From: a phage
Sequence record: PQ400056.1
DNA length: 64,000 bases
Strand: one strand, 5' to 3'
Below are positions 12,540 to 53,361 of the stretch, piece after piece; position 1 is the stretch's first letter; each line of letters opens with the position of its first letter. The position numbers and the translations under genes were made by a program. A model generated the notes under the pieces. The model searched no databases. It was given only the letters and a program-made list of their open reading frames with translations, and was not told the DNA's origin.

Positions 12540-13298
12540 TTACTTGCAAACGTATTGATCTACATCAATTGCGCCACCGAATGTGGGATGACGTTTTTCA
12601 AATCGAATAGTTCCGTCGTTTGGTTCGAAAACGGAGTATTCATATAGATCTTTCTTGCCAACATTCTTATAAAACCCGCCTTTCGTCATAACGGTTTCTT
12701 GTACGTTTGCTTTGTGTACGTTGTATTCATCAATGTATACAAAATCAACCATCTTCCCATTTTTAATGGTTACTTTAAGATCCCCTGGCTGGTTTCCATA
12801 TTTTGCATACAGTGGAGCCTCTTTAATTTTTGTGGAAATTCCATCTTTCATACTCCACTCATAACGAACGGTGCATTGATAGGTAAAAGTTTCGACCTTC
12901 GGTTCTTCTACCACTTTTGCTTCCTGTTTCGGTTGTTCTTCTTCAACCTTCGCAGAAGTCTCTGAATCGCTTTCTGACGCGGTTTCTTCTTTAGGTAATA
13001 CATTCATCAAGTTTTGGATTTGAGCGTTATATACAGCCTCCAGTGGCTGAATCTGCCCGATATTGATCATTGTATCACGAACAGTTTTATTCCAGTTTCG
13101 TTGCTCTTGTTTCAGAGACGGATCAATCTTAACAGCCTTAACATACACCTCATGAAGTTTAGAGTCCAGTGCGGAGATAGACTCATTAGCACAAATAAAC
13201 TTCTCTGATTTGGTAGTAGCTTTAGCGCAATCAAAGGACGCAGCGTTAGCACCGAAAGCAGTAGCAGAAAGAACGATAGCAGCGATAATGTTTTTCAT
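12540..13298 (-). CDS. secreted protein with DUF1311/LprI-like N-terminal domain
   Basis: 252 aa; signal peptide MKNIIAAIVLSATAFGANA; ASFDCAKATTKSEKFICANESISALDSKLHEVY resembles the two-cysteine DUF1311 motif; E/K-rich linker then a C-terminal domain; ATG 13298 with GAGGA SD. Confidence 0.6.
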   Translation of the reverse strand: MKNIIAAIVLSATAFGANAASFDCAKATTKSEKFICANESISALDSKLHEVYVKAVKIDPSLKQEQRNWNKTVRDTMINIGQIQPLEAVYNAQIQNLMNVLPKEETASESDSETSAKVEEEQPKQEAKVVEEPKVETFTYQCTVRYEWSMKDGISTKIKEAPLYAKYGNQPGDLKVTIKNGKMVDFVYIDEYNVHKANVQETVMTKGGFYKNVGKKDLYEYSVFEPNDGTIRFEKRHPTFGGAIDVDQYVCK

Positions 13299-13332
13299 AA
13301 TATATTCCTCAGTGTTTTGTCTTGATGGGAGT

Positions 13333-13362
13333 ATCTTACTACTCCCTTAATCCGGTGTCAAC
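13333..13362 (-). promoter_or_regulatory. early promoter cassette copy: GTTGAC, 18 nt, TAAGAT, with conserved leader
   Basis: minus-strand GTTGAC (13362-13357) and TAAGAT (13338-13333); overlaps stem-loop GGGAGTA / TACTCCC (13327-13346); leader ACTCCCATCAAG ... GAGGA before ATG 13298. Confidence 0.5.
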
Positions 13363-13372
13363 TACTTTTAAA

Positions 13373-13693
13373 TTATTTTCGCCATTCACCGGAAACAATA
13401 AAGTTTGTAAAGTGATCGTGGTCCATGATAACGTCATTAAGTACCATATGTGGATACACTTTAGTGATAATTTTACTAAGTACCATATGCGGATATGCTT
13501 TAGTGTAATCACGTTTACGATCAGTCATCCAGCCAACGAAAGTTGGTGCAAAGTACGGTACACCGTCAGACGATGCCATATTAAACCCTTTATCAACCAT
13601 AAATGCAGCCGCCCTAAGATTTTTAATTGAAGTAGTGCGACTAATTTCAAAAACTTTATCGGTAAAATTCATTTTAAGCCCCCGCTCGTGCAT
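13373..13693 (-). CDS. hypothetical protein (106 aa)
   Basis: minus-strand ORF. Confidence 0.45.
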   Translation of the reverse strand: MHERGLKMNFTDKVFEISRTTSIKNLRAAAFMVDKGFNMASSDGVPYFAPTFVGWMTDRKRDYTKAYPHMVLSKIITKVYPHMVLNDVIMDHDHFTNFIVSGEWRK

Positions 13694-13883
13694 TAATACG
13701 CATTTTCTGTATAGCCATGATCTGGTTTACTGCTTCTTCTTTACGTTCTTGCGTGATAATGTGACCAGATTCCGCAAACTCTCCAGCAACTTCTTCTACG
13801 ATCTCGCGAACTTGAGAACGTCCAAAGATGCGGTTTCCTTCGTAGCTCATAAACTCTGTTACTACTTGCTCGATAGATTTCAT
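13674..13883 (-). CDS. hypothetical protein (69 aa)
   Basis: ATG 13883 preceded by conserved leader AAAGGAGAATCAC. Confidence 0.5.
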   Translation of the reverse strand: MKSIEQVVTEFMSYEGNRIFGRSQVREIVEEVAGEFAESGHIITQERKEEAVNQIMAIQKMRINARAGA

Positions 13884-13912
13884 GTGATTCTCCTTTCGTT
13901 TGGTATGGGAGT

Positions 13913-13942
13913 ATGTTACTACTCCCTTATCTTTACGTCAAC
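13913..13942 (-). promoter_or_regulatory. early promoter cassette copy: GTTGAC, 18 nt, TAACAT
   Basis: minus-strand GTTGAC (13942-13937), TAACAT (13918-13913); stem-loop GGGAGTA / TACTCCC 13907-13926; leader ACTCCCATACCAAACGAAAGGAGAATCAC then ATG 13883. Confidence 0.5.
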
Positions 13943-13948
13943 TAGTTT

Positions 13949-14191
13949 TTAGAAATTTTTCGCTTCTTCTTCGGTCATCATAACCGCGCATTCGTGCATA
14001 ACTTTGAAAACCGGATCAATCATGTCGAATGCTTCGCGGGACAGTTTACGAGAAGCGATTTTGATTGCTTCTACGTCTTCTACTACAGGAACAAAAACAG
14101 TTTTCAGTTCGTCGAGGACGGCAGCTTCTTTTTCATTCAGGAAGATCCCAGCGTCGTACAGTGCAACTTCGATAACATTAACTTTAACCAT
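13949..14191 (-). CDS. hypothetical protein (80 aa)
   Basis: track ORF 13949-14254 starts at TTG inside the promoter; first ATG with GGAGGA SD is at 14191. Confidence 0.5.
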   Translation of the reverse strand: MVKVNVIEVALYDAGIFLNEKEAAVLDELKTVFVPVVEDVEAIKIASRKLSREAFDMIDPVFKVMHECAVMMTEEEAKNF

Positions 14192-14225
14192 TTTTATTTC
14201 CTCCAGTTCGTTTCGGTATGGGAGT

Positions 14226-14255
14226 ATAATACTACCGATGACCTTTGGCGTCAAC
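14226..14255 (-). promoter_or_regulatory. early promoter cassette copy: GTTGAC, 18 nt, TATTAT
   Basis: minus-strand GTTGAC (14255-14250), TATTAT (14231-14226); leader ACTCCCATACCGAAACGAACTGGAGGAAATAAAA then ATG 14191. Confidence 0.5.
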
Positions 14256-14455
14256 TAGTTTTTTGTTATTTTCGTGAAATTTTTCGTCGCCTCATGTGCT
14301 TTTCGCTGGGCTTCTTGTTGTGCTTGCTGGCGTGCTGCCTCTTGCGATGTCATAACAGACGCATTTGCAGCAGTTACAGCCGCGACCATCGCTGCGGTAT
14401 TAGCATTTACCGTACATGCACTAGCCAGCAAAGCAATCGCAATCATTTTCTTCAT
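14255..14455 (-). CDS. small secreted protein (66 aa)
   Basis: N-terminal signal peptide MKKMIAIALLASACTVNA; A/Q-rich mature part. Confidence 0.5.
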   Translation of the reverse strand: MKKMIAIALLASACTVNANTAAMVAAVTAANASVMTSQEAARQQAQQEAQRKAHEATKNFTKITKN

Positions 14456-14691
14456 AGTTTCCCCTTTAGGTTATCTTCGACCTTCACCCATTCCGCGTAT
14501 TCTTGCGCGGCTACTTTCGGATTTAAGCCGTCTTCGTACATTGCTTCAAGTAATTCTTCGTCGGTGGGCTTATACCCTAGATAAGCCTCCACCTGATTTT
14601 TCCAAATTTTATACCAGTTCATATTATCACCAATCAAGAGCGCGTGTCTCTGCGTCTTCCCATGCTTGATCCATAACAGCCTTGAAAACAT
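14452..14691 (-). CDS. hypothetical protein (79 aa)
   Basis: minus-strand ORF with ATGA-type overlap to the downstream gene. Confidence 0.45.
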   Translation of the reverse strand: MFSRLLWIKHGKTQRHALLIGDNMNWYKIWKNQVEAYLGYKPTDEELLEAMYEDGLNPKVAAQEYAEWVKVEDNLKGKL

Positions 14692-14899
14692 ATTCTAGAG
14701 TATCATCTTTAGAGAATCCGAAGACCTTAGACGGAATATCTTCAATTGCTACTCCCGCAACTTCTGCATTACGCGCTTGGCAATAATGCAACTCTAAGTT
14801 ATCGAGATAGCGACCGCCTAATTTCTCCATATCATCCCAGCATTTCCAGTAACCTACTTTATCTGCAATTGCCAACACTTTGCTGTTTTCGTTGTTCAT
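14627..14899 (-). CDS. hypothetical protein (90 aa)
   Basis: track ORF starts at 14962 inside the promoter; first ATG with AGGAG SD is at 14899. Confidence 0.45.
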   Translation of the reverse strand: MNNENSKVLAIADKVGYWKCWDDMEKLGGRYLDNLELHYCQARNAEVAGVAIEDIPSKVFGFSKDDTLEYVFKAVMDQAWEDAETRALDW

Positions 14900-14930
14900 C
14901 TTTGATTCTCCTTTTGTTTGGTATGGGTGT

Positions 14931-14960
14931 ATTATGCAATGTTGGATTCTGTAAGTCAAC
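14931..14960 (-). promoter_or_regulatory. early promoter cassette copy: GTTGAC, 18 nt, CATAAT
   Basis: minus-strand GTTGAC (14960-14955), CATAAT (14936-14931); leader ACACCCATACCAAACAAAAGGAGAATCAAAG then ATG 14899. Confidence 0.5.
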
Positions 14961-14970: not shown

Positions 14971-15000
14971 AATAAAAAAGCCGACCACAAGGATCGGCTT
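14971..15000 (-). terminator. rho-independent terminator (minus strand)
   Basis: minus-strand AAGCCGATCC-TTGT-GGTCGGCTT followed by TTTTTATTTT; lies just downstream of the 15010-15405 gene. Confidence 0.6.
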
Positions 15001-15408: not shown

Positions 15409-15612
15409 TTATTTCCTCTCTGAAAATTCTTTCATCAAGCTGTCGATCTTTGCTCTGTGTTCTGGTGTGTTTGTCATCTCTGCTAATTTGCTCAGAGATT
15501 CAATAGTGATCCGGTTGGCTTCTTCCATAGTCTCAACGACCATTGGCACAATCTTTTTATTGTTGTACACAAATGCAATATAACCGCCTTCTGGATATTC
15601 TTTCATAATCAA
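15409..15612 (-). CDS. hypothetical protein (67 aa)
   Basis: minus-strand ORF immediately downstream of gene 52. Confidence 0.45.
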   Translation of the reverse strand: MIMKEYPEGGYIAFVYNNKKIVPMVVETMEEANRITIESLSKLAEMTNTPEHRAKIDSLMKEFSERK

Positions 15613-16955
15613 CCCTTCTTAAGTTCTTTAAGATCTTTCTTATATTCCTTCATTGCGGTCGTCTTTGTCCAATACTCATATTCACTATGATGTTTATCGG
15701 CATCTTTGACCAGTCGATCATACTCTTCTTGAGTAACGCTATACAATGGCATAGAAACTAGCTTATCGGCGTATGGACGCAGTTTTTCATGTCCATTGAT
15801 GGATTGCATTACCTCGGCCTTTTTCTTGCCCTGTAGCTCGATTTCGCCCTTAATTACGCGGTCGATAAATTCGGCTTTAGCCATTGCATAATTGTATGCT
15901 TCCAGCGTTTCCGCTTGCATCAATTCAATGCGTTTATCGACATACCCTAATCGGATTTCGACGAATCGACGGATCAGATCGCTCGCTTTCTCGAATACTT
16001 CTACTAAACCACGTTCATTAACCACTACGATATTCTGGGCTACTAACTGTGTTAGTTTAAAATCCTTCATGATTTGCTCATGTCGAGCGGATTCATCTTC
16101 GCTTTTGAAATAATCGCGTTTCAGTGTTACTTCAAATCTGAATCCGTCCTTAGAGCAACGGTCATTATACGATACAATCAGATCTTTTTCTTCCAGTGCA
16201 TCCAGTACCGCTACATATTCTTCACGGTCGAACTTATAAGGAACTTCTGATATTGTCAGTTTAGTCTTGCCGTTTAGTTCATATGTACCCTCAAGAATCA
16301 CACCATCGCGATCATCTCGCGGGATAACTTTACCCGTGAATTTCGGGAATTGAACATTAGGTTCTTTATCCAGTTTTCCGGCAAGTGCTAGCTCTGTGCA
16401 TTCAATAAGGCTTTCCAGTGAATGCGGTAAAATGTCAGTTTTATACCCTGAAGCAATACCACTAATACCATTAGCCAATACCATTGGCACAACTGGCAAG
16501 TAGAACGCTGGCGGGATGTGTTCCAGATCTTCGTGCTTAGGTGCGCAATTCATATCTTTATAGATTTTAAAGAAGTTTTCATGCACACGAGCAAAGATAT
16601 AACGTGCCGCTCCTGCTTTCTGGACTAAACGCGATCCGAAGTTACCTTGACCGTCAAGCAGTGGAGTATTATTGCTCCATGTATTCGCCATGAGTGATCC
16701 GGCTTCTACGGCATTAGTTTCGCCGTGGTGATACCCCAACTCAGCGACACCAGATCCAATATCTGCCATCTTACGGAATTTCTTACGGTCGCCTTTACTC
16801 TTTTGCAAAGCACATTCCATAACAAAGCGTTGCACTGGTTTAAGCCCATCCACTAATTGAGGAATCCCGCGTTCCTCGGCAGAATAGATCGCATATTCCT
16901 TAGCTTCATTATGTACAATGCTTTCAAGGCTGCGGTAAGTAACTGATTTATTCAT
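15609..16955 (-). CDS. 52: DNA topoisomerase II medium subunit gp52
   Basis: GyrA-like motifs LVDGLKPVQRF, LLDGQGNFGS, ARYIFARV matching remembered T4 gp52; track start 16970 is GTG, first ATG with SD is 16955. Confidence 0.92.
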   Translation of the reverse strand: MNKSVTYRSLESIVHNEAKEYAIYSAEERGIPQLVDGLKPVQRFVMECALQKSKGDRKKFRKMADIGSGVAELGYHHGETNAVEAGSLMANTWSNNTPLLDGQGNFGSRLVQKAGAARYIFARVHENFFKIYKDMNCAPKHEDLEHIPPAFYLPVVPMVLANGISGIASGYKTDILPHSLESLIECTELALAGKLDKEPNVQFPKFTGKVIPRDDRDGVILEGTYELNGKTKLTISEVPYKFDREEYVAVLDALEEKDLIVSYNDRCSKDGFRFEVTLKRDYFKSEDESARHEQIMKDFKLTQLVAQNIVVVNERGLVEVFEKASDLIRRFVEIRLGYVDKRIELMQAETLEAYNYAMAKAEFIDRVIKGEIELQGKKKAEVMQSINGHEKLRPYADKLVSMPLYSVTQEEYDRLVKDADKHHSEYEYWTKTTAMKEYKKDLKELKKG

Positions 16956-16962
16956 CTTCACC

Positions 16963-17325
16963 TCATACACGCTTACAAATCACATTCTTTACTTTATCAG
17001 ATTTATCAGCCCAATCCAATAGCCATTTTAACGGAAGGATTGACACAATAAACGGGGCAGCAATCAAAGCAAACATGATACACCTGATAATCAGGAAAAC
17101 GCAAGTGACAAAACTAGCGATAGTGATCCCGACAAAACAAAATACCATAGAAAACAGAGTAATGATATAGAAAGGCCAGAATACCCACTCCCGCATCTTA
17201 ACGCCTTTGTATTCTCTGAATTGCTTAAAATCTACAAACAACTCTCGGATAGACGCGTACAGGACCGAAAAATCATCTTTCATTGCTCTGAATGAGCAAT
17301 CTTCTATTTTAGAATGACCTAGCAT
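16963..17325 (-). CDS. small membrane protein (120 aa)
   Basis: two long hydrophobic segments (FWPFYIITLFSMVFCFVGITIASFVTCVFLIIRCIMFALIAAPFIVSIL). Confidence 0.5.
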   Translation of the reverse strand: MLGHSKIEDCSFRAMKDDFSVLYASIRELFVDFKQFREYKGVKMREWVFWPFYIITLFSMVFCFVGITIASFVTCVFLIIRCIMFALIAAPFIVSILPLKWLLDWADKSDKVKNVICKRV

Positions 17326-21798: not shown

Positions 21799-21985
21799 TT
21801 TGATTCTCCTTTGTTACTAGATAACGAATTTGGTCTTGCATTGCGATCAGTTCCCAGCGTGCTACTTTCATCATGGAAACTGACTCTTTGAACATAATAT
21901 TAGCTTTTTCCTTCTCCCCTGTCAAGTAGATTTCTGCAATTTTTTCACAAAATTTTTGAGTTTCTTCATTCTTAAACGGTTTCAT
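21791..21985 (-). CDS. hypothetical protein (64 aa)
   Basis: track start 21994 is TTG; first ATG is 21985; preceded by GTTGAC, 18 nt, CATAAT promoter at 22016-22045. Confidence 0.4.
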   Translation of the reverse strand: MKPFKNEETQKFCEKIAEIYLTGEKEKANIMFKESVSMMKVARWELIAMQDQIRYLVTKENQNA

Positions 21986-22051
21986 ATAAGTCAACCTTTT
22001 GTTTTCGATGGGGACATTATGATATATCCCCGATCCAGTGTCAACAGATTT

Positions 22052-22351
22052 TTAATCTTTTTTCAATGCATCCATTACTCGCTCTGCGATCAGTTCTCGT
22101 AAGCACTGATAACCATGATATTTGATGGCAATGTCACGCAGATCATTAACCAGTTCCCGTACTTCATGGTCTTTCAGATCGTCTCTGTATTTCGATTTAA
22201 CCGTGTCTTTAGGTGGATTGTGGATAACCTGAAAACCTTGTTCTGCAATCACTGCGGCTTCTCGCTGGCGTTCATGTTGTACTGTATTTTTTATCAGGTC
22301 TACTTCCATGAACTTTGTCATACTCATCATCATGTTATTCTTTTTGCTCAT
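22052..22351 (-). CDS. hypothetical protein (99 aa)
   Basis: track ORF extends to 22432 and overlaps the gp39 stop; ATG with GAGGA SD at 22351. Confidence 0.45.
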   Translation of the reverse strand: MSKKNNMMMSMTKFMEVDLIKNTVQHERQREAAVIAEQGFQVIHNPPKDTVKSKYRDDLKDHEVRELVNDLRDIAIKYHGYQCLRELIAERVMDALKKD

Positions 22352-25184: not shown

Positions 25185-25604
25185 TTAAATATCCTCCGCG
25201 ATATGCCGGAACAACTCCAGATCGTTTTTATCCAGAATGAAACCGCTACAATCAATAATCCCGTTACCGTAATTATCGGTTAACAGTCGTTCCGTTGCCA
25301 TGTATGCGCGTACTTTGTTGTTAAAATTCATTACATGTTGTGCATAGTCACAATGAATCTTTTGACGGTTCCACGCGACAATTGATTGTAGATGTATTAC
25401 ATTAGCCACATTATTAATAACAACCATATCAAAACCCTCGCTTAGTGGAATGTTCTGACATTTTATTGATACATACAGCTTGGTAGTCACGAGATTTTTT
25501 GACGAATTAAGAGCTACGGCCAAAAAATCCTGTAACTGTTCGTTTGTCATTGTTGGCTTACACCGCGTATCTAAACTCTTCTTTCTTCTAGCTTCATTAG
25601 CCAT
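25185..25604 (-). CDS. hypothetical protein (139 aa)
   Basis: minus-strand ORF; contains copy B of a 57-bp direct repeat (25425-25481). Confidence 0.4.
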   Translation of the reverse strand: MANEARRKKSLDTRCKPTMTNEQLQDFLAVALNSSKNLVTTKLYVSIKCQNIPLSEGFDMVVINNVANVIHLQSIVAWNRQKIHCDYAQHVMNFNNKVRAYMATERLLTDNYGNGIIDCSGFILDKNDLELFRHIAEDI

Positions 25605-25605
25605 A

Positions 25606-25773
25606 TCAAAACCCTCGCTTAGTGAAATATTCGATCATTTTATTGATACATTCAGCTTCACTGTCGCCGGATACGTTCCATCCATAATGACCCCAACTAA
25701 AACACATGGTAACAGTTCCATTGTGACGGCGTACCGTCACTTCGTCAAATTCGGGGATACTTCGCATAATCAT
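25606..25773 (-). CDS. small hypothetical protein (55 aa)
   Basis: not in the ORF track; ATG 25773 with GAGGA SD; stop overlaps the next start (TGATATG); ends in copy A of the 57-bp repeat. Confidence 0.35.
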   Translation of the reverse strand: MIMRSIPEFDEVTVRRHNGTVTMCFSWGHYGWNVSGDSEAECINKMIEYFTKRGF

Positions 25774-27489: not shown

Positions 27490-28244
27490 TATAAACCTAC
27501 CTTCGCTTTCATCAATTCAATCCACGACGCATCAATCGGAAGCCCGTATTTCACGCGTTCTTTTTGTGCTGGCGTTAAGTTCTCATACTTAGAAAGAGAT
27601 TCAATCAAAACGCTGGTATATTTTAGCACGATTTCGGTATTGTTTGCAATAGCCTTAAGTTTTTCTTCTTTCTTGTTGATTTCGCTAAGGGCTTGCTTGA
27701 GATCTGCAATTTTCTGATAACGTTCTTCCATACGGAAGAGAGTATTTTTAATCGCTCGCTCGGCTGCCTCTGCTTTCTCCGGTTCGTTGTGCTTTTTATG
27801 GCGCTCGATTGCTAATTTCTTTTCTTCGATTGCCATTTCCTGATTTTTGATGCGATTCTCGTTAAGTTCGATCCACTCGATGTACTTCGCACGTAGGGCA
27901 ATTTCATCATCAGAAAGTTTACCGTTAGTTCCTAGTTCCTGGATCTCTTTAAGAGATTCGATAGTGTGATTGCCACGGAAAGAATTGTATTTCAGTTTAA
28001 CCGGAATTACATTGCCATCAACATATCCCAGATTGCAATCAATGCGCTCTAAGGAGAGTCCGTCATCACCTTCACCGAAAGCCTCACCTGAATAGGCACA
28101 ATGAGTCTGACGGTAAATGTTACGAACAGTGACTAAGCTCATAGAGAAGTCTTTGTTGCGACGTGAAGCACCAGCCATGATAGAGTTCAGCCGGAAAACA
28201 ACCAGCGCCAATTCTTCGTTAGATTTAAAAGCAAACAGTTTCAT
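27489..28244 (-). CDS. hypothetical protein (251 aa), in the position and size of T4 Srd
   Basis: position after dda and size resemble T4 srd; CAYSGEAF...LSLERID..NLGY..GNV stretch of unclear affinity; coiled-coil C-terminus; assignment is tentative. Confidence 0.4.
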   Translation of the reverse strand: MKLFAFKSNEELALVVFRLNSIMAGASRRNKDFSMSLVTVRNIYRQTHCAYSGEAFGEGDDGLSLERIDCNLGYVDGNVIPVKLKYNSFRGNHTIESLKEIQELGTNGKLSDDEIALRAKYIEWIELNENRIKNQEMAIEEKKLAIERHKKHNEPEKAEAAERAIKNTLFRMEERYQKIADLKQALSEINKKEEKLKAIANNTEIVLKYTSVLIESLSKYENLTPAQKERVKYGLPIDASWIELMKAKVGL

Positions 28245-28305
28245 AATTGATTCTCCTTAGTTGGTATGTGTGTATTATTGTCTATCTGGTTTGTGCTGTC
28301 AACAC

Positions 28306-28809
28306 TTAAATTAAAGAAAATTTGTAAATCTCTATCAGATCGCCGTTACACGCGTAAACTTCCTCGATCTCATCAAGGATCATGGTCGTCCCTGTCTTGT
28401 ATATGCACTCGCGCTCATCTGCCAACATAGCATACAAAGACAGTCGAGTAGTCGGATTGTCATACTCTTTAGACACCACTCGGTCAATAGCATGTTCGTA
28501 ATAATTCATGCAAGGCTTGGTAGGTTTTATTGCAATAATCTTTCCTGTTGCATAAACATCGGTTGCAAAGTCCTCTGCTGTTGATTGTAGTGGCGTAAAG
28601 CTCATAGGACGCTCTACAACGAAAGAATCACCCACAATTAAGGTATCCAGCTTACGGCCTTCTCTTTTGCTCACACCGCGATACAAGGCTTCATGATGCA
28701 CTAACCGCTCAGTCTTTTCAATCAATCCATTAAGGATCGACATATCGATATTTTCTTTAGAGTTCATCACTTCATCAATGATGTTAAGTTCTTCTGGTGT
28801 AAATTGCAT
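28306..28809 (-). CDS. putative ADP-ribosyltransferase-like protein (ModA/ModB position)
   Basis: 167 aa; spacing of YRG ... QST ... ERE resembles the R / S-T / E-x-E arrangement of ADP-ribosyltransferases; between the Srd-like gene and gene 56 as in T4. Confidence 0.4.
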   Translation of the reverse strand: MQFTPEELNIIDEVMNSKENIDMSILNGLIEKTERLVHHEALYRGVSKREGRKLDTLIVGDSFVVERPMSFTPLQSTAEDFATDVYATGKIIAIKPTKPCMNYYEHAIDRVVSKEYDNPTTRLSLYAMLADERECIYKTGTTMILDEIEEVYACNGDLIEIYKFSLI

Positions 28810-28842
28810 AATAAAAAAGCCTCCAATCTTTCGACGGGAGGC

Positions 28843-28872
28843 ATAATAAAACCATTATAGAGTAGTGTCAAC
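28843..28872 (-). promoter_or_regulatory. early promoter GTTGAC, 18 nt, TATTAT followed by an SD-containing hairpin
   Basis: minus-strand GTTGAC (28872-28867), TATTAT (28848-28843); hairpin GCCTCC / GGAGGC (28819-28841) includes the SD for ATG 28809. Confidence 0.45.
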
Positions 28873-28878
28873 TAATTT

Positions 28879-29397
28879 TTAGTAGCCGCGTTCTTGACGG
28901 GCGAAGTTTTCAGCATTTTTCAGATAGTACAGAATAAAGAGTTCTTGAGCGTCAATACCCAGCGGGATCATCTTTGACAGAATGAAGTGGATCGCGTCCA
29001 CAAATTCAAATTTCACTTCAAGCTGATCTTCCGGTGACAGTTCAGAGAATTTACGCGCTCGCGCTTCTCCGTGGTTCTTTTTCCACATTTTCCAGATTGC
29101 ACTTGCATCTTTACCATTGGACATTCCACCCAGCGATGTGTAAAGCTCTCGTGTTTCGTCTGCGATAGCGTCATCCATCCGTTGCATCCAATCCAGCATT
29201 TCACCGCAAGTCTCTAGCTTAGTTGGATTTGGGACCCAATCAAATTTTTCGGATAATGCAACCTGCAAACCAGTTTGCATTTCGAGCATCACCTGAAACG
29301 GATCTTTACCTTCTGCAATAGCGTGATGATATGCGGCGATAGCCGCGTTAATATCTTTTTCGTTAACCAGACCAGCACAAGAATTAAATTCTGACAT
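28879..29397 (-). CDS. 56: dCTP pyrophosphatase gp56 (MazG-like)
   Basis: DPFQVMLEMQ, KLETCGEMLDWM, SPEDQLEVKFEFVDAIHFIL, YYLKNAENFARQERGY closely match remembered T4 gp56; track start is GTG, ATG at 29397. Confidence 0.88.
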   Translation of the reverse strand: MSEFNSCAGLVNEKDINAAIAAYHHAIAEGKDPFQVMLEMQTGLQVALSEKFDWVPNPTKLETCGEMLDWMQRMDDAIADETRELYTSLGGMSNGKDASAIWKMWKKNHGEARARKFSELSPEDQLEVKFEFVDAIHFILSKMIPLGIDAQELFILYYLKNAENFARQERGY

Positions 29398-35120: not shown

Positions 35121-35164
35121 CGTATATTTCTCACGTTGGCGGGTATCGTCACCCAACACCCGCC

Positions 35165-35192
35165 ATTATACACACTTTATCTTAAATGTCAA
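35165..35192 (-). promoter_or_regulatory. consensus sigma70-type promoter TTGACA, 16 nt, TATAAT downstream of gene 43
   Basis: minus-strand TTGACA (35192-35187), TATAAT (35170-35165); followed by hairpin GGCGGGT / ACCCGCC (35137-35163). Confidence 0.55.
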
Positions 35193-37860
35193 ACAGGTCA
35201 GTCAGAGAAGCAACTTTCTCATATTGCAGCTTTGCAGCCGTGGTAATGTTCTCCAGTGGTTTGACGAAAGTCTTATTAAACAACAAAGGCCAGTCTAACC
35301 ACTTTAACACCTCTGATTCAATTTCTGGAGGAATACGAGTACCGGACAACCAACCAAAACAGATTTCTCCAAACGGATTTCGATCTTTCAGCGGTACAAT
35401 CATAACCTTCTCGCCCTCACGAATTGGATCTAGTCCGAATTTTCGAGCATTACGATTATAACACAATACACTCTTAACCGCATACGGACAACCCTTAATC
35501 GGATACCCGTTTGAATCGCTGTATTTCTGTAGGTTGTTTGCAGATGATACCGCAGCAACCTCAAGATAATCAAGTTTTCTAAATTCTTGCTCAAAAATAC
35601 CGTAGTATTCCTGCAATGACTCTTCACCTTCCTGCAACATACGGCGAATACATTCTTTCAGTGATTTCTGACATGCTTTAGGGGTGGAGCTACGTTGCGT
35701 TTCCAAGCCCATGATTTTTAGCTTAGGTTCAGCAAAGCGCGTTCCTTCCATATCCCAAACATTAAGAGCATAACGCTTTTTGCCAGTCCAGAATCCACCG
35801 ATACCCGCAGATTTCAACGGAGGACCAGCAATTGCCTCACGGTCCATAAACATCAAGTGCTCATAGTTGTTCATGTACTCGCATAACTCGCGATATCCCT
35901 TGTCGATAATAGGTTCCATTCGATGTTTACCGAAATTATCAAGGAAGTCAACAAGTTTTTCGGTATCGTCGAAACGGTCTTCCCCGCCAACCTTATCAAC
36001 AACATTGTTAACCAGCACATAAACGGAGTCAGTATCACAATAACGAACATATGCAAAATCGGTTGTTCCGCAAAGCTCGTTTAAGTATTCGTTAATCTTA
36101 CGCTCAATCCACTGAATTGCAAGCTGACCAAACAAGGTGATCGCACTAGCGTTACGGAGATCATAAAAACGGAATTTAGGATTCCCCAACGCACCATAAA
36201 GGGAGTTGATCAAAACTTTTCGAGAAAGCTGGTTTGTATTGCACAAGATCGACTCGTCTTTACATTCTTCCAGCAATTTCTCTAAGGCATCTTTACTTAA
36301 TTCAGAAAGCATCGATTTAAACGCTTCATCAAAGTCGTGACGTACTTCAACGCTATAGCTAATGGTTCCCCCATAAACATGATTTTCATCGTGTAGAATC
36401 GCTTTACAGAGTTCAGCATTGCGATCACATGCCAACATCATGTTTTTGTACTGCTTACGCTGATCGAATACCTTTTTAATCTCAATCGGTACGATACCGT
36501 GAATATCTTTTCTATACATCCATCCGTTAGGAGAGCAAGAATACTCATCACTCGGACGTGGTGCAGTTTTATTGATATACTCGTGCATCGGTGCAGCATC
36601 AAAAGATCCGGCGATTGTTTCCGGCGAAATGTTAACCTGTCGAATAATAGATGGGTACAGACTTGTTAAGTCAAAGCTCATCATCCAACGGTAAGCATTC
36701 GGCACAGGTTCTTTTACGAATGCGCCTGGATACGTCTGCTTAGGCTGTATCTTATTTTCCGGTACTACTTTACCCTCAGCTTTCAGAGATCCGAAGATAA
36801 TAGCATCCCATACTTTCATCGGGTTATAAACATGGTTAAATTTAATCTTTGCATAGAAACATAGACTATACACAAGATCGATAAATCCACGCTTTTTATC
36901 AATCGCCAGCACACGATCAACGTCGCCGATGTTATAATCGATGTAAAGTTGATGGTTGTCATCACGCAATTTCTTTAACGGACCATCATAATCAACCTTA
37001 CCGATTCCTGTCTCATATTCAGCAACATAATCTAACGCATATGTTGGTTGAGTCGTAAAGCTAAATTTCTTGTACAGGTCAATATAATCAAGGCTTTCGA
37101 TCCCCATGATCGTAAATGCTTCACGCTCGTTGCCAAAATCATCCTGTGAGATTCGGGATTTAATCTTACCGCACGGGCTTAGACGGTTAGCGGTTCTACT
37201 TCCGAACTTATTACTGATACGTTTAATGATATATGGAATATCGAATGTTTCTGTGTTCCAGCCAGTGAAACCAACGGGTCGGTTTTCCTCAAAGAATCGG
37301 ATGTATTCTAACAGCAATTCATCTTCTGTGTCATAGACGTTATAAACAACGCGCTCTACAATATCAGGTCGAAGAATAGACTTGCTTGCTTCCCAGATTT
37401 CACCGTTTTTTCCCTTCAAATCAAATACAAAGAAACGATCATGTACTGAATCATAATGCGTAATTGCATCGATAGGATATTTCGCTTCTTCTGGTTTAGG
37501 AAATTCTGGGGCAGTGACCTCGATATCAACCCATGCTACACGGATTTTATTTCGGTCATATCGAATCTCTCCTTTATACGTATCAGACAGATAGGAGATG
37601 ATAAAATCATCCATCCCTAGCGCCTCTTGCCCCATTTCTCCCATCTTTTTACGCCATTTGTTGGCCTCGTTCATAGAGGGGAATTTTTTAGCAATGCAAG
37701 GCTTGCCATAGATATCTTTATAATTCGTAACCATACCAGGCGCGGCATGATGAAATAAAGTTGGCGTATATTCAACGTAACGCTCTTGTTCTTGTCCAGC
37801 ATCATCAATATAACGCTCGTAGATCTTATCACCTACTCGCTCACATGACAGAAAATACAT
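35182..37860 (-). CDS. 43: DNA polymerase gp43 (family B)
   Basis: VGDKIYERYID, GWNTETFDIPYI, MSFDLTSLYPSIIRQVNISPETI, YCDTDSVYV, KKRYALNVWDMEG match remembered T4 gp43; track start 37890 is GTG, ATG with AAGGAG SD at 37860. Confidence 0.95.
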   Translation of the reverse strand: MYFLSCERVGDKIYERYIDDAGQEQERYVEYTPTLFHHAAPGMVTNYKDIYGKPCIAKKFPSMNEANKWRKKMGEMGQEALGMDDFIISYLSDTYKGEIRYDRNKIRVAWVDIEVTAPEFPKPEEAKYPIDAITHYDSVHDRFFVFDLKGKNGEIWEASKSILRPDIVERVVYNVYDTEDELLLEYIRFFEENRPVGFTGWNTETFDIPYIIKRISNKFGSRTANRLSPCGKIKSRISQDDFGNEREAFTIMGIESLDYIDLYKKFSFTTQPTYALDYVAEYETGIGKVDYDGPLKKLRDDNHQLYIDYNIGDVDRVLAIDKKRGFIDLVYSLCFYAKIKFNHVYNPMKVWDAIIFGSLKAEGKVVPENKIQPKQTYPGAFVKEPVPNAYRWMMSFDLTSLYPSIIRQVNISPETIAGSFDAAPMHEYINKTAPRPSDEYSCSPNGWMYRKDIHGIVPIEIKKVFDQRKQYKNMMLACDRNAELCKAILHDENHVYGGTISYSVEVRHDFDEAFKSMLSELSKDALEKLLEECKDESILCNTNQLSRKVLINSLYGALGNPKFRFYDLRNASAITLFGQLAIQWIERKINEYLNELCGTTDFAYVRYCDTDSVYVLVNNVVDKVGGEDRFDDTEKLVDFLDNFGKHRMEPIIDKGYRELCEYMNNYEHLMFMDREAIAGPPLKSAGIGGFWTGKKRYALNVWDMEGTRFAEPKLKIMGLETQRSSTPKACQKSLKECIRRMLQEGEESLQEYYGIFEQEFRKLDYLEVAAVSSANNLQKYSDSNGYPIKGCPYAVKSVLCYNRNARKFGLDPIREGEKVMIVPLKDRNPFGEICFGWLSGTRIPPEIESEVLKWLDWPLLFNKTFVKPLENITTAAKLQYEKVASLTDLFDI

Positions 37861-37892
37861 AATATAAACTCCTTCACTTACGAAAGACACTC

Positions 37893-37921
37893 ATTATAGG
37901 GGAATCGACTTAGTTTGTCAA
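37893..37921 (-). promoter_or_regulatory. consensus sigma70-type promoter TTGACA, 17 nt, TATAAT for gene 43, embedded in an inverted repeat
   Basis: minus-strand TTGACA (37921-37916), TATAAT (37898-37893); flanked by inverted repeat ATAGGGG / CCCCTAT (37896-37930). Confidence 0.6.
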
Positions 37922-37942
37922 TACCCCTATCCCATCAGTATC

Positions 37943-38305
37943 TTATCGCCCGATCTGATATTTCTCGATCAGCGTCCACTCTTCTTTCTGTTTGAAAGAC
38001 AATACACGGAAATTATTAACTTCGGTAGTTTCAAAATCACTATCAATCAGGGTACACAGATTCCACTGCGCCAGAAGTTTTGCAATGTTATTACGGCGTA
38101 ATTCATCTTCCCACGTCATTTTAACACTACGACCATCTAATTTCAACAACTCCTTGAAATGAACGATGTAATAGCGCCCTTTCTTCTGGAGAATATGACA
38201 AGACTGATACAGTGTCTTGTCTCGATTGTTGGCAATGCCGCAGCGGGTTAAAGTTTCCTTAATTTTAAGGAAGTTTTCAGGACTAATCAAATTAATTTCA
38301 ATCAT
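37943..38305 (-). CDS. regA: translational repressor RegA
   Basis: 120 aa; IKETLTRCGIANNRDKTLYQSCHILQKKGRYYIVHFKELLKLDGR and NNFRVLSFKQKEEW match remembered T4 RegA. Confidence 0.92.
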   Translation of the reverse strand: MIEINLISPENFLKIKETLTRCGIANNRDKTLYQSCHILQKKGRYYIVHFKELLKLDGRSVKMTWEDELRRNNIAKLLAQWNLCTLIDSDFETTEVNNFRVLSFKQKEEWTLIEKYQIGR

Positions 38306-44437: not shown

Positions 44438-44685
44438 CGTACAGACTCCATAGATCCACGCGCAATAACATTCTGGGTAATATCAGCAATCTTACGGGAT
44501 ACAATGGTTGCTAGTTCCAGTCTAGTGATATTGTCTCGGTCGAAAGGAATTTCGTCATGTGTCCACATCCCGTAGTTAGAACGGAAGGATAGCATATGTT
44601 GACCATTCCGAACAACCTCAAAAACTCGGATCTTAGTAAACTTCTCTAAACTTGCGTTAAATTCTTTCAGTGCATCAGTAATCAT
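44434..44685 (-). CDS. hypothetical protein (83 aa)
   Basis: ATG with GGAGG SD at 44685 (track start 44697 is TTG). Confidence 0.45.
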   Translation of the reverse strand: MITDALKEFNASLEKFTKIRVFEVVRNGQHMLSFRSNYGMWTHDEIPFDRDNITRLELATIVSRKIADITQNVIARGSMESVR

Positions 44686-44710
44686 AATAACCTCCAATCA
44701 ATTTTTAATG

Positions 44711-44740
44711 AGTATAACGGGGATTTCTCCCCGCGTCAAC
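44711..44740 (-). promoter_or_regulatory. early promoter GTTGAC, 18 nt, TATACT
   Basis: minus-strand GTTGAC (44740-44735), TATACT (44716-44711); spacer contains hairpin CGGGGA / TCCCCG. Confidence 0.45.
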
Positions 44741-45765
44741 TAACTTTTTGCGCTATTTACTTCTGCTAAAAGTTCATCAGAGATACGCTTAACTGCCGCA
44801 AGTTCTTCCGGTTCTAGGTTTTGTTCTTCCAGATATTCATAGACCATCTGAATAGTGCTTTTAACTTCAATAACACCTGTTTCCTGTGATGCGCTACTCT
44901 CCAGTTTATGGACCACTTTTAGCTTGTGTACAACGGCCTCTAACGCGCTTTCTAACTTAGTTAACCCATTATCAGCAACCGTTGCAATAAGACGCACACT
45001 AAGCCCCTTAAAGCGTTCTACATCGATTTTATCATCTGACGGGTAAGTGATACGCACATGATAAGTTTTGTCATTCTGGATAAACTCTTTTTTGTGTGTA
45101 TCGGTATCGAATACCCAAAACCCACGCGGATCGTTTTCGTCACCCGCCGTTAGTGTGTATGGTGTACCGATATACGTTACATTACCGCCATCGCTGATAG
45201 TATGAAAATGACCGGAAAACACTTCACGGTATTTCTTGAGGAAGTCCGCGCTATAACCTTCGGATTTTAGCCCTTTATAGAAATAGTAACCGGACAATTC
45301 CCAATGGCCTACACAATATTCGCTGAATGAGTTTTGAATAAACTCTAAAATCTCTGATTTATTGTCATCACAAAACCACGGGAACAGATCAAATGATACA
45401 CCATCAAAGGTAACTGTTTCCGGTTTATCGATAACCTTAATGCAATCATACTGGCTTAACACTTCACGCGGTGCGTTAGGCTGGATCTTGTTTCGTTTAA
45501 ACATATCATGGTTCCCGACCGTGATATAACAAGTAATTCCAGCCTCTTCCAGTAATGGGATGACCTTAGTACGGTTAAATTTCATGGTTTCATGGGTAAT
45601 TGCTTTTCGGCAATCAAACCAATCCCCTGTTTGAATCCATGTCTTAATATTATGCTCTTTGGAGTATTCAACCGCCTTCTTGATGGTATCAAGAATATAC
45701 TCATGCACCCACGGATCATCGCCACCGATACCAGTATGCAGATCACCTAAAAGCAAAATTTTCAT
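44740..45765 (-). CDS. 47: recombination nuclease gp47 (Mre11/SbcD-like)
   Basis: 341 aa; MKILLLGDLH, GDWFD, TVGNHD, GHWELSGYYFYKG, GHFHTIS, GDENDPRGFWVFDT match remembered T4 gp47. Confidence 0.92.
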   Translation of the reverse strand: MKILLLGDLHTGIGGDDPWVHEYILDTIKKAVEYSKEHNIKTWIQTGDWFDCRKAITHETMKFNRTKVIPLLEEAGITCYITVGNHDMFKRNKIQPNAPREVLSQYDCIKVIDKPETVTFDGVSFDLFPWFCDDNKSEILEFIQNSFSEYCVGHWELSGYYFYKGLKSEGYSADFLKKYREVFSGHFHTISDGGNVTYIGTPYTLTAGDENDPRGFWVFDTDTHKKEFIQNDKTYHVRITYPSDDKIDVERFKGLSVRLIATVADNGLTKLESALEAVVHKLKVVHKLESSASQETGVIEVKSTIQMVYEYLEEQNLEPEELAAVKRISDELLAEVNSAKS

Positions 45766-49634: not shown

Positions 49635-50451
49635 CTCGCTCTTTACCAATCAAAAATTCAACTTCACGACGTTTAATGTCTTCTTGAAGGTCTTTAATCT
49701 TCTGGCGATCTTGCATGATTTCATCCATCTTGTCAAGTGCCGCAATGAAATCATCGAAACGTTCAAAGGTTTTACCTTCATTTGCTTCGCCAAATTTAAC
49801 CATTGTCAGGCCGTAACGACTACTAAACAGACGTTTCAACTGTCCAACGATCTTAGAATCAGTGGTTATAACTTCCAATTCTTCTACTTCACGAAAGAAT
49901 TTTCTATCAGAATCAATAAACCAGCTAGTTCCTTTATGGTCTCTATCTTCGGTTGCGCTCATTAGAGTATGGTCTTTACCATCAATTTCAATTACATCAA
50001 TTTGCCCACATGGACTAACATTTTTAACAGTAAAAGGTCTATAATTTATTGCTCGTGCAATAACATAATTAAGGTTAGATACGTTTTCAGCATAATGGCA
50101 GAAGTCGGTCATAGCATTCGCATCTTTCCAAGTATAAGTTTTACCAACTTCCCATTTCTGGGGAACTTCTTCAACTTCACGAAAGAATTTTCTATCGAAT
50201 GGACTAAAGAAATATGTGGCAGTCCAAATGTCTTTTCCTGTAGCAGTTTTCGCCGTATGATAAACACCGTCTAGCTCTATTGCATCAATCCAACCGTTAC
50301 CATCGATCTCGATGATGGTAAATGGCTTGTCACCAATAGCTGCACTAATATCGCTGTTAAGTGGAGAAAGAACACCTTCTCCGTTAGTAATAAACTCAGT
50401 TTTAGCGTTTTCATCTTTCCAGGTGTAGGTTTTACCAATTTCCCATTTCAT
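49627..50451 (-). CDS. paralogous-family protein, member 2 (internal two-fold repeat)
   Basis: 274 aa; MKWEIGKTYTWKDENA ... DRKFFREVEE repeated as QKWEVGKTYTWKDANA ... DRKFFREVEE. Confidence 0.55.
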   Translation of the reverse strand: MKWEIGKTYTWKDENAKTEFITNGEGVLSPLNSDISAAIGDKPFTIIEIDGNGWIDAIELDGVYHTAKTATGKDIWTATYFFSPFDRKFFREVEEVPQKWEVGKTYTWKDANAMTDFCHYAENVSNLNYVIARAINYRPFTVKNVSPCGQIDVIEIDGKDHTLMSATEDRDHKGTSWFIDSDRKFFREVEELEVITTDSKIVGQLKRLFSSRYGLTMVKFGEANEGKTFERFDDFIAALDKMDEIMQDRQKIKDLQEDIKRREVEFLIGKERGW

Positions 50452-50463
50452 AATATATTCCCC

Positions 50464-50964
50464 TTAACCGATTTTATCAAGTTCGTTTAATGCTTTCTCT
50501 GCTTCCTGTATAGCTTGCACTCTTTCCGGCATTTTGTCAAGAAAATCTTTCAACTCTTCAAAACTGGAGATATGACGCAAGGCATTAGCACCGATAGCCG
50601 CATGTGATTTGCATTCAAAGCGAATTTTATAATTATCCATCGCCAATTTGAGAAGGTCTATTAGATCATATTCATGACCAGGCAATAAAACTTCTTTGAA
50701 GCACGCTCGGTCGCCATCGGAAAACCATATATTATCACCAACATCGATAGAACTAATATAATCCCCTTCGTGATTATAGATTGAACGTACATTACCCCAA
50801 CGGTCTACCGTAGCGACAGTAAATGGTTTATCTAGATATGTAAACACACCATCAATATTAGGTTTTTGTTCGTAACGCCAACAATCACGCAAAATGCGCT
50901 TTTCGTCCTCACCAACCAACTTATATGTCTTCCCTTCTTCCCATTTCATAATATCATCTCTCAT
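50464..50964 (-). CDS. paralogous-family protein, member 3
   Basis: 166 aa; MKWEEGKTYKL ... DRACFKEV plus coiled-coil C-terminus. Confidence 0.55.
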   Translation of the reverse strand: MRDDIMKWEEGKTYKLVGEDEKRILRDCWRYEQKPNIDGVFTYLDKPFTVATVDRWGNVRSIYNHEGDYISSIDVGDNIWFSDGDRACFKEVLLPGHEYDLIDLLKLAMDNYKIRFECKSHAAIGANALRHISSFEELKDFLDKMPERVQAIQEAEKALNELDKIG

Positions 50965-51491
50965 TTTTTGATACGTGATTCTAATTGGATCATACGGTCG
51001 CGCGTTTGCTTGTATTCGCGGATAGCACCGATCCGGCTAGGCATACCATCAAGCACGCTCTTAATCCCTTCTAGGGTAGTGATTTTAGCAATGCTATTAT
51101 GTAACCCCATCTTATCGATCAACTGAATGTCGTAGGCTTCCATAAGCAGACCCAGACGTTCTAAAGTTAGGTCTTCTTCTTTTTCTTCCGATTCTGGAAT
51201 CTTAGGTTCAATAATAACTTCGGTAAAGAAACGACGCTCACCCGACCAAAACCACACACCGGAACAGCCAATAGGGGATTCTTTTAACGTCATAGAGTCG
51301 AAATCACTACCGATAATAGTAATTTCTCTAACATCACCATCATCGTCAATGTCTTCTACCCTAAACGGGCGACCAGCCAACAAGTCAACAATACATCTGT
51401 TAATAGACGACGAAAATTTAGTCAGTTCGGCTTTCGACGCTTCGCATTCAATCTTGTAAGTTTTACCAACTTCCCATTCCATAATAATCAC
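50961..51491 (-). CDS. paralogous-family protein, member 4
   Basis: 176 aa; MEWEVGKTYKI ... ERRFFTEV plus coiled-coil C-terminus. Confidence 0.55.
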   Translation of the reverse strand: MIIMEWEVGKTYKIECEASKAELTKFSSSINRCIVDLLAGRPFRVEDIDDDGDVREITIIGSDFDSMTLKESPIGCSGVWFWSGERRFFTEVIIEPKIPESEEKEEDLTLERLGLLMEAYDIQLIDKMGLHNSIAKITTLEGIKSVLDGMPSRIGAIREYKQTRDRMIQLESRIKK

Positions 51492-52741: not shown

Positions 52742-52758
52742 ATTCACCTCACACATTA

Positions 52759-53298: not shown

Positions 53299-53327
53299 GT
53301 TGTCCTCTCGTTGTTTTCGATGTGAGC

Positions 53328-53355: not shown

Positions 53356-53361
53356 CACCCC

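Follow-up and report, generated by a model that had tools for sequence, protein, structure and literature searches.

The window (the whole stretch of 64,000 nt analysed here, record PQ400056.1) stems from an RB49-like T4-type coliphage. Up to about 55.4 kb it can be assigned to Krischvirus, with 99% identity to phages FL37, FL15 and kaaroe. Within a cluster of small ORFs on its minus strand lie four copies (P1 to P4) of one cassette, each directly before an ORF:

13296–13375, minus strand: PeSL-type cassette, copy 1 (P1), before the 252-aa LprI-domain gene (ATG 13298–13296); upstream stop TAA 13375–13373, A-tract, −35 TTGACA 13361–13356, 17-bp spacer, −10 TAAGAT 13338–13333; predicted start A at 13326; SD TGAGGAA
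13346–13327, minus strand: P1 hairpin GGGAGTA-6 nt-TACTCCC, straddling the −10
13373–13693, minus strand: variable ORF between P2 and P1, homologue of phi1 ORFan 263.1
13881–13951, minus strand: copy 2 (P2), before a 69-aa ORF (ATG 13883–13881); upstream stop TAA 13951–13949, −35 TTGACG 13941–13936, −10 TAACAT 13918–13913; hairpin 13926–13907; predicted start A at 13906; leader ATACCAAACGAAAGGAGAATCAC
14189–14257, minus strand: copy 3 (P3), a degraded-stem version, before an 80-aa ORF (ATG 14191–14189); upstream stop TAG 14257–14255 overlapping the G of GTTGAC, −35 TTGACG 14254–14249, −10 TATTAT 14231–14226; stem GGTAGTA/TACTCCC with one mismatch; leader ACTCCCATACCGAAAC; SD TGGAGGAA
14897–15012, minus strand: copy 4 (P4), before a 90-aa ORF (ATG 14899–14897); upstream stop TAA 15012–15010, −35 TTGACT 14959–14954, −10 CATAAT 14936–14931; leader ACACCCATACCAAACAAAAGGAGAATCAAAG
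15000–14978, minus strand: P4 stem-loop, a predicted intrinsic terminator hairpin with U-run, upstream of the −35

Among the flanked ORFs a Pfam family (LprI) was found for the 252-aa gene only, and the PHROGs of all of them are of unknown function. They fall into separate BLAST clusters and are mutually unrelated. Therefore, the similarity of the cassettes is not a by-product of gene duplication, which was considered as its source and rejected. ORF 13373–13693 is translationally coupled (TAAAATG) to the 69-aa ORF behind P2. Its homologue is labelled phi1p263.1 in the annotation of E26, and ORFan 263.1, located in a hyperplastic region, is named among the differential ORFans of the PeSL paper (PMC2839356). 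An Rfam search of 12–16 kb with E-values up to 1 returned no known RNA family; the sole match, to a eukaryotic lncRNA with 18 bits, was spurious.

The four copies had been proposed in a first-pass annotation (13333–13362, 13913–13942, 14226–14255 and 14931–14960), and all of them are indeed present, all on the minus strand. In each, an A-rich tract with the stop codon of the upstream gene (all four stops precede A-tracts) is followed by GTTGAC, a 17-bp spacer and the −10 box; then come a start region rich in C, a ribosome site of the GGAG type and the ATG. All four have TTGACN, and 9–10 out of 12 bases match the sigma-70 consensus. The distance from the −10 to the ATG is 29–34 nt, with GGAG or GAGG 6–9 nt 5' of the ATG. 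The spacer of 18 nt given initially equals the canonical 17 bp when it is counted from TTGACN. The −10 form TAnnnT holds for copies 1–3 only, copy 4 having CATAAT. The leader said to be common to all copies is found, as a 15-nt element, in three of the four; P1 shares ACTCCCAT with the others and then diverges towards the SD TGAGGAA. An alignment of 12 cassettes yields the consensus TAAAAAnTnGTTGACA-17-TATAAT-AC.CCCAT..CAAA.AAA..GGAGAAT.AATTATG.

How often would such elements be expected by chance? The pattern GTTGAC-N18-TANNNT has 9 matches in the window compared to 0.59 expected, a number reached in none of 100 shuffles, and all 9 are on the minus strand, which is the strand of the early genes. 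In simulations, 0.05 occurrences of the 15-nt leader would be expected (≤2 mismatches; 3 found), 0 of the 20-nt hairpin (≤1 mismatch; 2 found) and 0.7 of the upstream 14-mer AAAAACTAGTTGAC (≤2 mismatches; 8 found). A loose promoter scan of 12–16 kb gave 15 sites, with 11.1 expected, which is not significant alone; therefore, the strict pattern and the flanking motifs are needed. The 10-nt core of the leader, too short for this kind of test, showed no enrichment at 2 mismatches (43 versus 44.8 expected).

At least 14 such cassettes exist within the window. The following lie outside the cluster, together with the gene they border:

21983–22074, minus strand: distant cassette (22016–22045), TTGACA-17-CATAAT; leader CCCCATCGAAAACAAAAGG; hairpin GGGGATAT..GTCCCC over the −10 (dG −14.6 kcal/mol)
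28242–28332, minus strand: additional cassette (28302), TTGACA-17-AATAAT; leader ACACACATACCAACTAAGGAGAATCA; no hairpin
28807–28901, minus strand: distant cassette (28843–28872), TTGACA-17-TATTAT; hairpin with U-run downstream of the −10, including the SD GGAGG
35130–37951, minus strand: family-B DNA polymerase gene (gp43, 892 aa), with cassettes on both sides (37921 upstream, 35192 downstream)
44683–44769, minus strand: distant cassette (44711–44740), TTGACG-17-TATACT; hairpin CGGGGA-GAAA-TCCCCG inside the spacer (dG −13.4 kcal/mol, z −3.2)

Positions 22016, 28843 and 44711 had been listed before for their promoter geometry only. They are genuine cassettes with hairpins of their own, although the one at 22016 lacks the TAnnnT box. 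Further cassettes, absent from the earlier list, are those at 22413, 28302, 35192, 37921, 39948, 52209 and 53355. The leader of the 28302 cassette belongs to the same subfamily as those of copies 2–4.

We conclude that the repeated cassettes are, very probably, promoter-early stem-loops (PeSLs) of an RB49-like phage, with the recombination role proposed for these elements. PeSLs were defined in the phages RB49 and phi1 (Arbiol, Comeau, Kutateladze, Adamia, Krisch 2010, Genome Biol Evol 2:140; PMC2839356), which belong to the genus of the window, so this is a correct re-identification and not a discovery. The type named by the first-pass annotation was right. Each defining feature at the sequence level is found at the locus: the stop of the preceding gene in an AT-rich tract, the promoter TTGACA-N17-TATAAT, a G/C stem-loop whose position varies (within or adjoining the promoter, in one of five positions), an SD and the ATG. 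Architecture, excess over chance, hairpins, cassette-bounded indels and one hybrid cassette are direct observations, and copies 1–4 are predicted early promoters. Here as there, the elements mostly precede ORFans in hyperplastic regions and border g43 on both sides, they are associated with indels, their crossover zones fall in the interval from the −10 to the ATG, and the locus holds the homologue of ORFan 263.1. In architecture and locus we see no essential difference. The family consensus is TTGACA-N17-TATAAT with Gn-loop-Cn stems (PMC4122927); the hairpins of P1 and P2 differ in having neither polyG/polyC runs nor a U-tract. In lacZ assays strong promoter activity was shown for PeSL206/205 and inferred for PeSL193/192, whereas terminator or attenuator activity of the stem-loop was shown for PeSL211/210 only (PMC2839356).

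Related elements, the PeSLs and PmSLs of T4/PST and KVP40/nt-1 (Comeau, Arbiol, Krisch 2014; PMC4122927), also combine promoter, stem-loop and SD next to differential ORFs and include degraded 'half' PeSLs, similar to P3. They differ in their promoters (TTTACW..TAYWAT; TTGYVH..TAWWAT), in other stem motifs and in stem-loops located mostly upstream of the promoter. The RB49 early promoter consensus (G-36, G-33, T/C at −12, C at −3 to −1; Desplats et al. 2002, as quoted in Nolan et al. 2006, PMC1524935) agrees, according to the latter, with 5'-end mapping. It accounts for GTTGAC, CATAAT and the 'ACTCCCA' part of the claimed leader; as quoted there, it comprises neither a hairpin nor the conserved ATACCAAAC..GGAGAATCA leader of the window. 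Lambdoid morons (Hendrix et al. 2000, as presented in PMC2839356) are likewise single accessory genes with their own promoter and terminator, but in that account no conserved repeated linker flanks them, and illegitimate recombination is their presumed mode of acquisition.

We mapped indel breakpoints at the DNA level in ten relatives. Gene content at the locus varies among the 11 genomes, and small ORF modules bounded by cassettes are present or absent. ORF 13373–13693 is shared by the window, kaaroe, Skers and E26 and is absent from GEC-3S, MIZ4, 011D4, RB49, FL04, Makalu and Brandy; one of its junctions lies in the A-tract directly 5' of the P1 −35. A 51-aa module (in RB49, FL04, Makalu, Brandy, Skers and E26) is bracketed by two cassettes, and its deletion junction falls in the A-tract 5' of the −35. 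All four combinations of presence and absence of these two modules exist. A 68-aa module of FL04, Makalu and Brandy sits between two cassettes with a common leader of about 30 nt. In genomes lacking it, just one hybrid cassette is left, P4, whose promoter half is that of the cassette before the 68-aa ORF and whose leader half is that of the stem-loop cassette before the 90-aa ORF in these three phages, with the junction between the −10 and the SD. One of the four indels in the region is off the cassettes, inside a 66-aa gene (window 14305–14463) in 011D4 and E26. As far as genome comparison can tell, these cassette-bounded modules and the hybrid P4 support the idea of modular gene shuffling at the locus of copies 1–4. 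The enrichment of junctions at cassettes could in part reflect the survival of intergenic junctions only, since nearly all intergenic space at the locus is cassette.

According to the PeSL model, each cassette fills the gap between two small early genes. Its A-rich tract holds the stop of the upstream gene, followed by a near-consensus host sigma-70 promoter (G-TTGACN, 17 bp, T/C-AnnnT), a C-rich −3 to −1 region with the predicted start at the A of CCCAT, and a leader of 23–28 nt with a strong GGAG-type ribosome site 6–9 nt before the ATG. Right after infection, host RNA polymerase in its unmodified form would transcribe from these promoters, leading to high expression of the small ORFans. In many cassettes a G-rich/C-rich hairpin, lying 5' of the −35, within the spacer, over the −10 or 3' of it, may attenuate or terminate transcription in read-through RNA from the upstream unit. 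Because direct repeats of about 60–100 bp of similar sequence follow each other at intervals of a few hundred bases, the homologous recombination machinery of the phage could cross over between cassettes and so delete, insert or swap the intervening modules, with hybrid cassettes left behind. Mini-circles with crossovers between the −10 and the ATG are known from RB49/phi1 (PMC2839356). PeSLs are among the few concrete mechanisms proposed for accessory-gene shuffling in large lytic phages without a dedicated recombinase. The window adds no new principle but offers a clear case study from more recent Krischvirus genomes; the hybrid cassette, the two bracketed modules and the four indel combinations are independent support for the model of 2010, which was based on two genomes.

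The leader might instead act mainly after transcription. The block GGAGAATCA(A/C)A would then be a target of the RegB/S1 endoribonuclease shutting off early mRNAs, with recombination incidental. Judged from the leader sequences, we regard this as somewhat unlikely. GGAGAATCA occurs 5 times with 0.5 expected, always as a minus-strand SD, and fits 10 of the 11 positions of the T4 strong-site consensus GGAGRAYARAA; furthermore, RB49 encodes a diverged RegB (PMC3014915). However, the relaxed form GGAGRAYNRAA is only weakly enriched (5 versus 1.0 expected), and the SD contexts of P1 and P3 differ. Such cleavage is compatible with the PeSL explanation and would add to it.

The hairpin deserves separate attention. 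GGGAGTA/TACTCCC had been reported for two copies and is clean in P1 and P2, forming a 7-bp stem over the −10 with a dG of −11.9 kcal/mol and z-scores of −2.5 and −3.5, respectively; the two 20-nt hairpins differ by 1 base. In P3 it is degenerate. Copy 4 also has a stem-loop, outside the range reported for it, namely the predicted terminator hairpin at 14978–15000 (dG −12.7 kcal/mol), which is the only one among copies 1–4 with a sense-strand U-run. P1 and P2 continue with AUACC and AUCAA instead and were not flagged as terminator-like on the minus strand. A terminator role for the hairpins of P1 and P2 is thus doubtful and at best putative. In the cassettes overall the hairpins are of unrelated sequence and differing position (other positions occur at 44739, 52209, 28871, 35192 and 39948), with z ≤ −2.3 in 8 out of 13 and a dG of −25 kcal/mol at the 35192 cassette downstream of the gp43 gene.

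Could the hairpin be the functional core, recognised by a recombinase, a nickase or a factor shutting off early promoters, so that the cassettes would be site-specific, integron-like mobile elements? Arbiol et al. speculated that a recombination protein might bind the G..C stem (PMC2839356). The poor terminator qualities of GGGAGTA/TACTCCC would fit, as would the occurrence of the identical hairpin GGGAGTAGTAAnATACTCCCA before other, unrelated genes elsewhere in Krischvirus contigs; an exact-pattern scan of viral contigs found it in Krischvirus-like contigs only, with no wider spread at such stringency. The P1 stem is unchanged in all 11 phages, whereas its loop is variable. However, the P2 stem is broken in two of them, GEC-3S and RB49, without compensation, and across the orthologues of the 11 phages no compensatory changes were found; invariance (P1) or decay (P2) alone neither supports nor rejects structural selection. 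Moreover, cassettes without any hairpin exist (28302, 37921, 53355). Integron cassettes, flanked by attC, resemble the modules in being small promoter-served ORF units with circular intermediates and insertion at a repeated site. attC structures have about 57–141 bp, unlike the 20-nt hairpins of the window, where, in addition, each module has its own promoter. The junctions vary relative to the hairpin, lying in the A-tract for the 51-aa module and in the −10/SD interval for the 68-aa module, so there is no fixed crossover point and general homologous recombination fits. No integrase or integrase-like gene is reported for RB49/phi1 either (PMC2839356). Site-specific mobility centred on the hairpin is therefore decidedly unlikely. 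An extension, which we consider unlikely too, would combine both ideas: a phage protein could recognise the structure over the −10 and either silence the early promoters or introduce nicks from which cassette exchange begins. This PeSL subfamily would then be mobile in a regulated, quasi-site-specific way, and in parallel the GGAGAATCA leader could be a RegB/S1 cleavage signal.

Returning to PeSLs with shared ancestry, one has to ask whether the copies resemble each other beyond what function demands. A strong sigma-70 promoter with a ribosome site must look alike anywhere, and pure convergence would imply neither common descent nor a role in recombination. Consistent with it, the −35, the −10 and the SD are the most conserved alignment columns, and cassettes beyond the local cluster are just 33–36% identical outside the pattern-defining bases. 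With these bases excluded, however, the four copies have an average pairwise identity of 0.53, compared to 0.27 for 22 sites sharing the geometry only, and none of 5000 random control quartets reaches 0.53; the claim that the copies are more similar than random sequence is borne out. This identity extends to positions free of promoter or ribosome-site constraint, and similarity among the cassettes is a mosaic. Together with the nearly identical P1/P2 hairpins, the 15-nt leader in three copies, the hybrid P4 and the duplicated leaders flanking the 68-aa module, this largely refutes convergence, which we hold to be very improbable. An accidental cluster of promoter-like hexamers in AT-rich intergenic sequence, towards which only the slight surplus of the loose scan leans, is already refuted by the strict-pattern, motif, conservation and identity tests and has next to no probability. 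P3 is nearly invariant across all 11 phages, the cassette sites are conserved in position across the ten relatives, and the independent annotation of GEC-3S marks promoters at the homologous sites.

The phage part of the window holds at least 14 promoter-leader cassettes, all on the minus strand. Each is named by the position at which its -35 element starts:

13361 (P1), minus, hairpin over the -10
13941 (P2), minus, hairpin over the -10
14254 (P3), minus, hairpin degenerate
14959 (P4), minus, hairpin upstream of the -35
22044, minus, hairpin over the -10
22413, minus, hairpin over the -10
28302, minus, no hairpin
28871, minus, hairpin after the -10
35192, minus, hairpin after the -10
37921, minus, no hairpin
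39948, minus, hairpin after the -10
44739, minus, hairpin inside the spacer
52209, minus, hairpin inside the spacer
53355, minus, no hairpin

The four neighbouring copies P1 to P4, which the first-pass annotation had pointed out, are all present on the minus strand at the sites it named. In each, G-TTGACN is followed after 17 bp by a -10 hexamer and ACwCCCA; then come a short leader, a Shine-Dalgarno (SD) sequence of the GGAG type and ATG. Some details of the earlier description have to be modified. Its 18-nt spacer is the canonical 17 bp if counted from TTGACN, and its TAnnnT -10 holds except in P4 and at the 22016 site, which read CATAAT. The full leader is found in three copies, while P1 has only ACTCCCAT and then diverges. 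The stem-loop GGGAGTA/TACTCCC, reported for two copies, is clean in P1 and P2 and degenerate in P3; just upstream of P4, outside the range first given, there is instead a terminator hairpin followed by a U-run (15000-14978).

One would expect 0.59 instances of GTTGAC-N18-TANNNT in 64 kb; there are nine, all on the minus strand, and none of 100 shuffles reaches this number. Likewise, the 15-nt leader occurs three times with up to two mismatches (0.05 expected), the 20-nt hairpin twice with up to one mismatch (0 expected) and the upstream 14-mer of A-tract plus GTTGAC eight times with up to two mismatches (0.7 expected). Identity was also compared pairwise in anchored sequences from which the pattern-defining bases were left out, with 22 minus-strand sites sharing only the promoter geometry as controls. 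Mean identity is 0.53 for P1 to P4 versus 0.27 for the controls, and 0 of 5000 random control quartets reached 0.53. Thus, the possibility that the copies are no more alike than random intergenic DNA fails, and the repeated cassettes are real. Gene duplication cannot account for their similarity, since the flanked ORFs, all of unknown function, are not related to each other. The likeness is mosaic, highest in the leader for P2-P4 (84%), upstream for P1-P3 (80%) and in the spacer for P1-P2 (64%), a pattern which, judged from these alignments, is what repeated exchange would produce.

The stretch from 13.0 to 15.3 kb, with genes on the minus strand and the topoisomerase II medium-subunit gene (15609-16970) upstream of them, shares 99% identity with Escherichia phages FL37, FL15 and kaaroe; for about 55 further genomes of Krischvirus (RB49-like, T4-type) the value is 95-98%. 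In RB49 and phi1, promoter-early stem-loops (PeSLs) consist of an AT-rich tract that includes the stop codon of the upstream gene, a sigma-70 consensus promoter, an SD and a start codon, with the stem-loop at any of five positions; about 50 exist per genome, mainly before ORFans in hyperplastic regions, and gene 43 has one on both sides (Arbiol et al. 2010, PMC2839356). Their consensus is TTGACA-N17-TATAAT with Gn-loop-Cn stems, and degraded 'half' PeSLs are recognised as well (Comeau et al. 2014, PMC4122927). The cassettes match this definition, including the variable stem-loop: their hairpins are unrelated in sequence and differ in position. As with gene 43, an 892-aa ORF coding for a family-B DNA polymerase lies between cassettes 37921 and 35192. 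The cassettes are therefore PeSLs, an already known element, re-identified in the genus in which it was defined, and the earlier reading of them as PeSL-type elements linked to gene shuffling is supported by these features and by the recombinant nature of P4.

This became evident when the region was taken from 10 relatives and breakpoints were mapped; the expected variation of cassette-flanked ORFs was borne out for three ORFs. FL04, Makalu_001 and Brandy have an extra 68-aa ORF, flanked on one side by a terminator-plus-TTGACT..CATAAT cassette and on the other by the GGGAGTAG-TAAnAT-ACTCCC stem-loop cassette that precedes the 90-aa gene; in Brandy a leader of about 30 nt is near-identical in both. 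The window and seven other phages lack this ORF and retain a single cassette. There, P4 joins the promoter half of the former cassette to the leader half of the latter and is thus a recombinant. Its exchange zone, between the -10 and the SD/ATG, is that of the sequenced mini-circle crossovers of RB49 and phi1 (PMC2839356). A 51-aa ORF, flanked by a GGGGATCG..GATCCCC cassette and P1, is present in RB49, FL04, Makalu, Brandy, Skers and E26 and missing in the window, kaaroe, GEC-3S, MIZ4 and 011D4, with the junction in the A-tract directly 5' of the -35. The ORF at 13373-13693 is found in the window, kaaroe, Skers and E26 only; the E26 annotation names the homologue there phi1p263.1, and ORFan 263.1 is a phi1-specific ORF of a hyperplastic region (PMC2839356). 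The 51-aa ORF and the 13373-13693 ORF occur in all four combinations, which implies recombination or recurrent events. Not every indel is cassette-mediated, as the 66-aa gene deletion in 011D4 and E26 (window 14305-14463) lies where there is no cassette. Cassettes make up about 10% of 3.3 kb, yet hold three of four indel events (binomial P about 0.004 by our arithmetic), an enrichment to which survival of intergenic junctions could add, nearly all intergenic DNA at the locus being cassette.

The deletion removes about 160 bp of the signal-peptide-like 66-aa gene; its flanking matches overlap by 17-20 bp or so in the relatives' coordinates, which suggests a loss via short homology. Within the 13373-13693 ORF, a 39-bp tandem duplication (13426-13503, copies 82% identical, a repeat_region in the kaaroe record) adds 13 aa compared to the 86-aa homologue of Skers and E26.

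According to the RB49 early-promoter consensus (G at -36, G at -33, T or C at -12, C at -3 to -1; Desplats et al. 2002 as cited in Nolan et al. 2006, PMC1524935), the predicted start is the A of CCCAT, at 13326, 13906, 14219 and 14924. By this comparison, part of the supposed leader is the published promoter consensus, and in the P1 and P2 hairpins the 3' arm would lie upstream of the transcript that the cassette itself starts. In the GenBank record of GEC-3S, promoters are annotated independently at the homologous sites. Both hairpins have 7 bp and a dG of -11.9 kcal/mol (z -2.5 and -3.5). On the sense strand no U-tract follows them, so a terminator role is doubtful for these two. The P1 stem is the same in 11 phages while its loop varies; the P2 stem is broken in GEC-3S and RB49, and neither has a compensatory change. 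An exact scan of IMG/VR returned the hairpin in three contigs only, two of 150-165 kb matching the window and a 4.4-kb fragment; in these contigs it also precedes other, different genes. On the plus strand (13907-13926) the P2 hairpin has a T-rich tail, was flagged terminator-like and could stop antisense transcription. The minus-strand cassette at 28809-28872 has a hairpin and U-run after the -10, with its SD GGAGG within the 3' arm; it would attenuate its own transcript and sequester its own ribosome site, an odd layout for a strong early promoter.

GGAGAATCA, an SD block, is found five times (0.5 expected), always directly before ATG on the minus strand, and agrees with the T4 RegB/S1 strong-site consensus GGAGRAYARAA at 10 of 11 positions; RB49 carries a diverged regB (PMC3014915). 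As a side lead, it is a candidate RegB/S1 site; the relaxed consensus is only weakly enriched. A second conserved initiation block unlike this type, GAGGATTATATT-ATG, is common to about eight genes (minus strand; 12002, 12204, 13285, 21307, 24243, 33781, 44132, 48679) and is used by P1. The 252-aa gene downstream of P1 (12540-13298, minus) has an N-terminal LprI (lysozyme-inhibitor, formerly DUF1311) domain (E = 1.4e-5) and, by eye, a signal-peptide-like N-terminus; RB49ORF260c has a weak DUF1311 hit in the list of Nolan et al. (PMC1524935).

The window is chimeric: lytic phage DNA is joined in it to host/prophage DNA. Krischvirus homology ends at about 55387, and a perfect 2317-nt inverted repeat (52230-54546 and 55405-57721, 858 nt apart) most likely arose as an artefact of assembly or fold-back. 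As its second arm is a copy made by fold-back, the same PeSL is seen on the minus strand at 53355 and again on the plus strand at 56596. The segment 58062-63954, with GC up to 0.57, is 99.9-100% identical to a P2-like (P88-like) prophage segment of the E. coli chromosome (ETEC strains, UMNK88) and codes for a replication endonuclease, an S8 peptidase and an AAA ATPase. Direct-repeat families D2, D6 and D20 at 49879-51486 (spaced by 288-291 bp or about 500 bp, with identities of up to 97%) suggest that small paralogous genes are arrayed here in tandem, and a 58-nt direct repeat (family D5) lies at 25424-25481 and 25601-25658, 90% identical and 177 bp apart.
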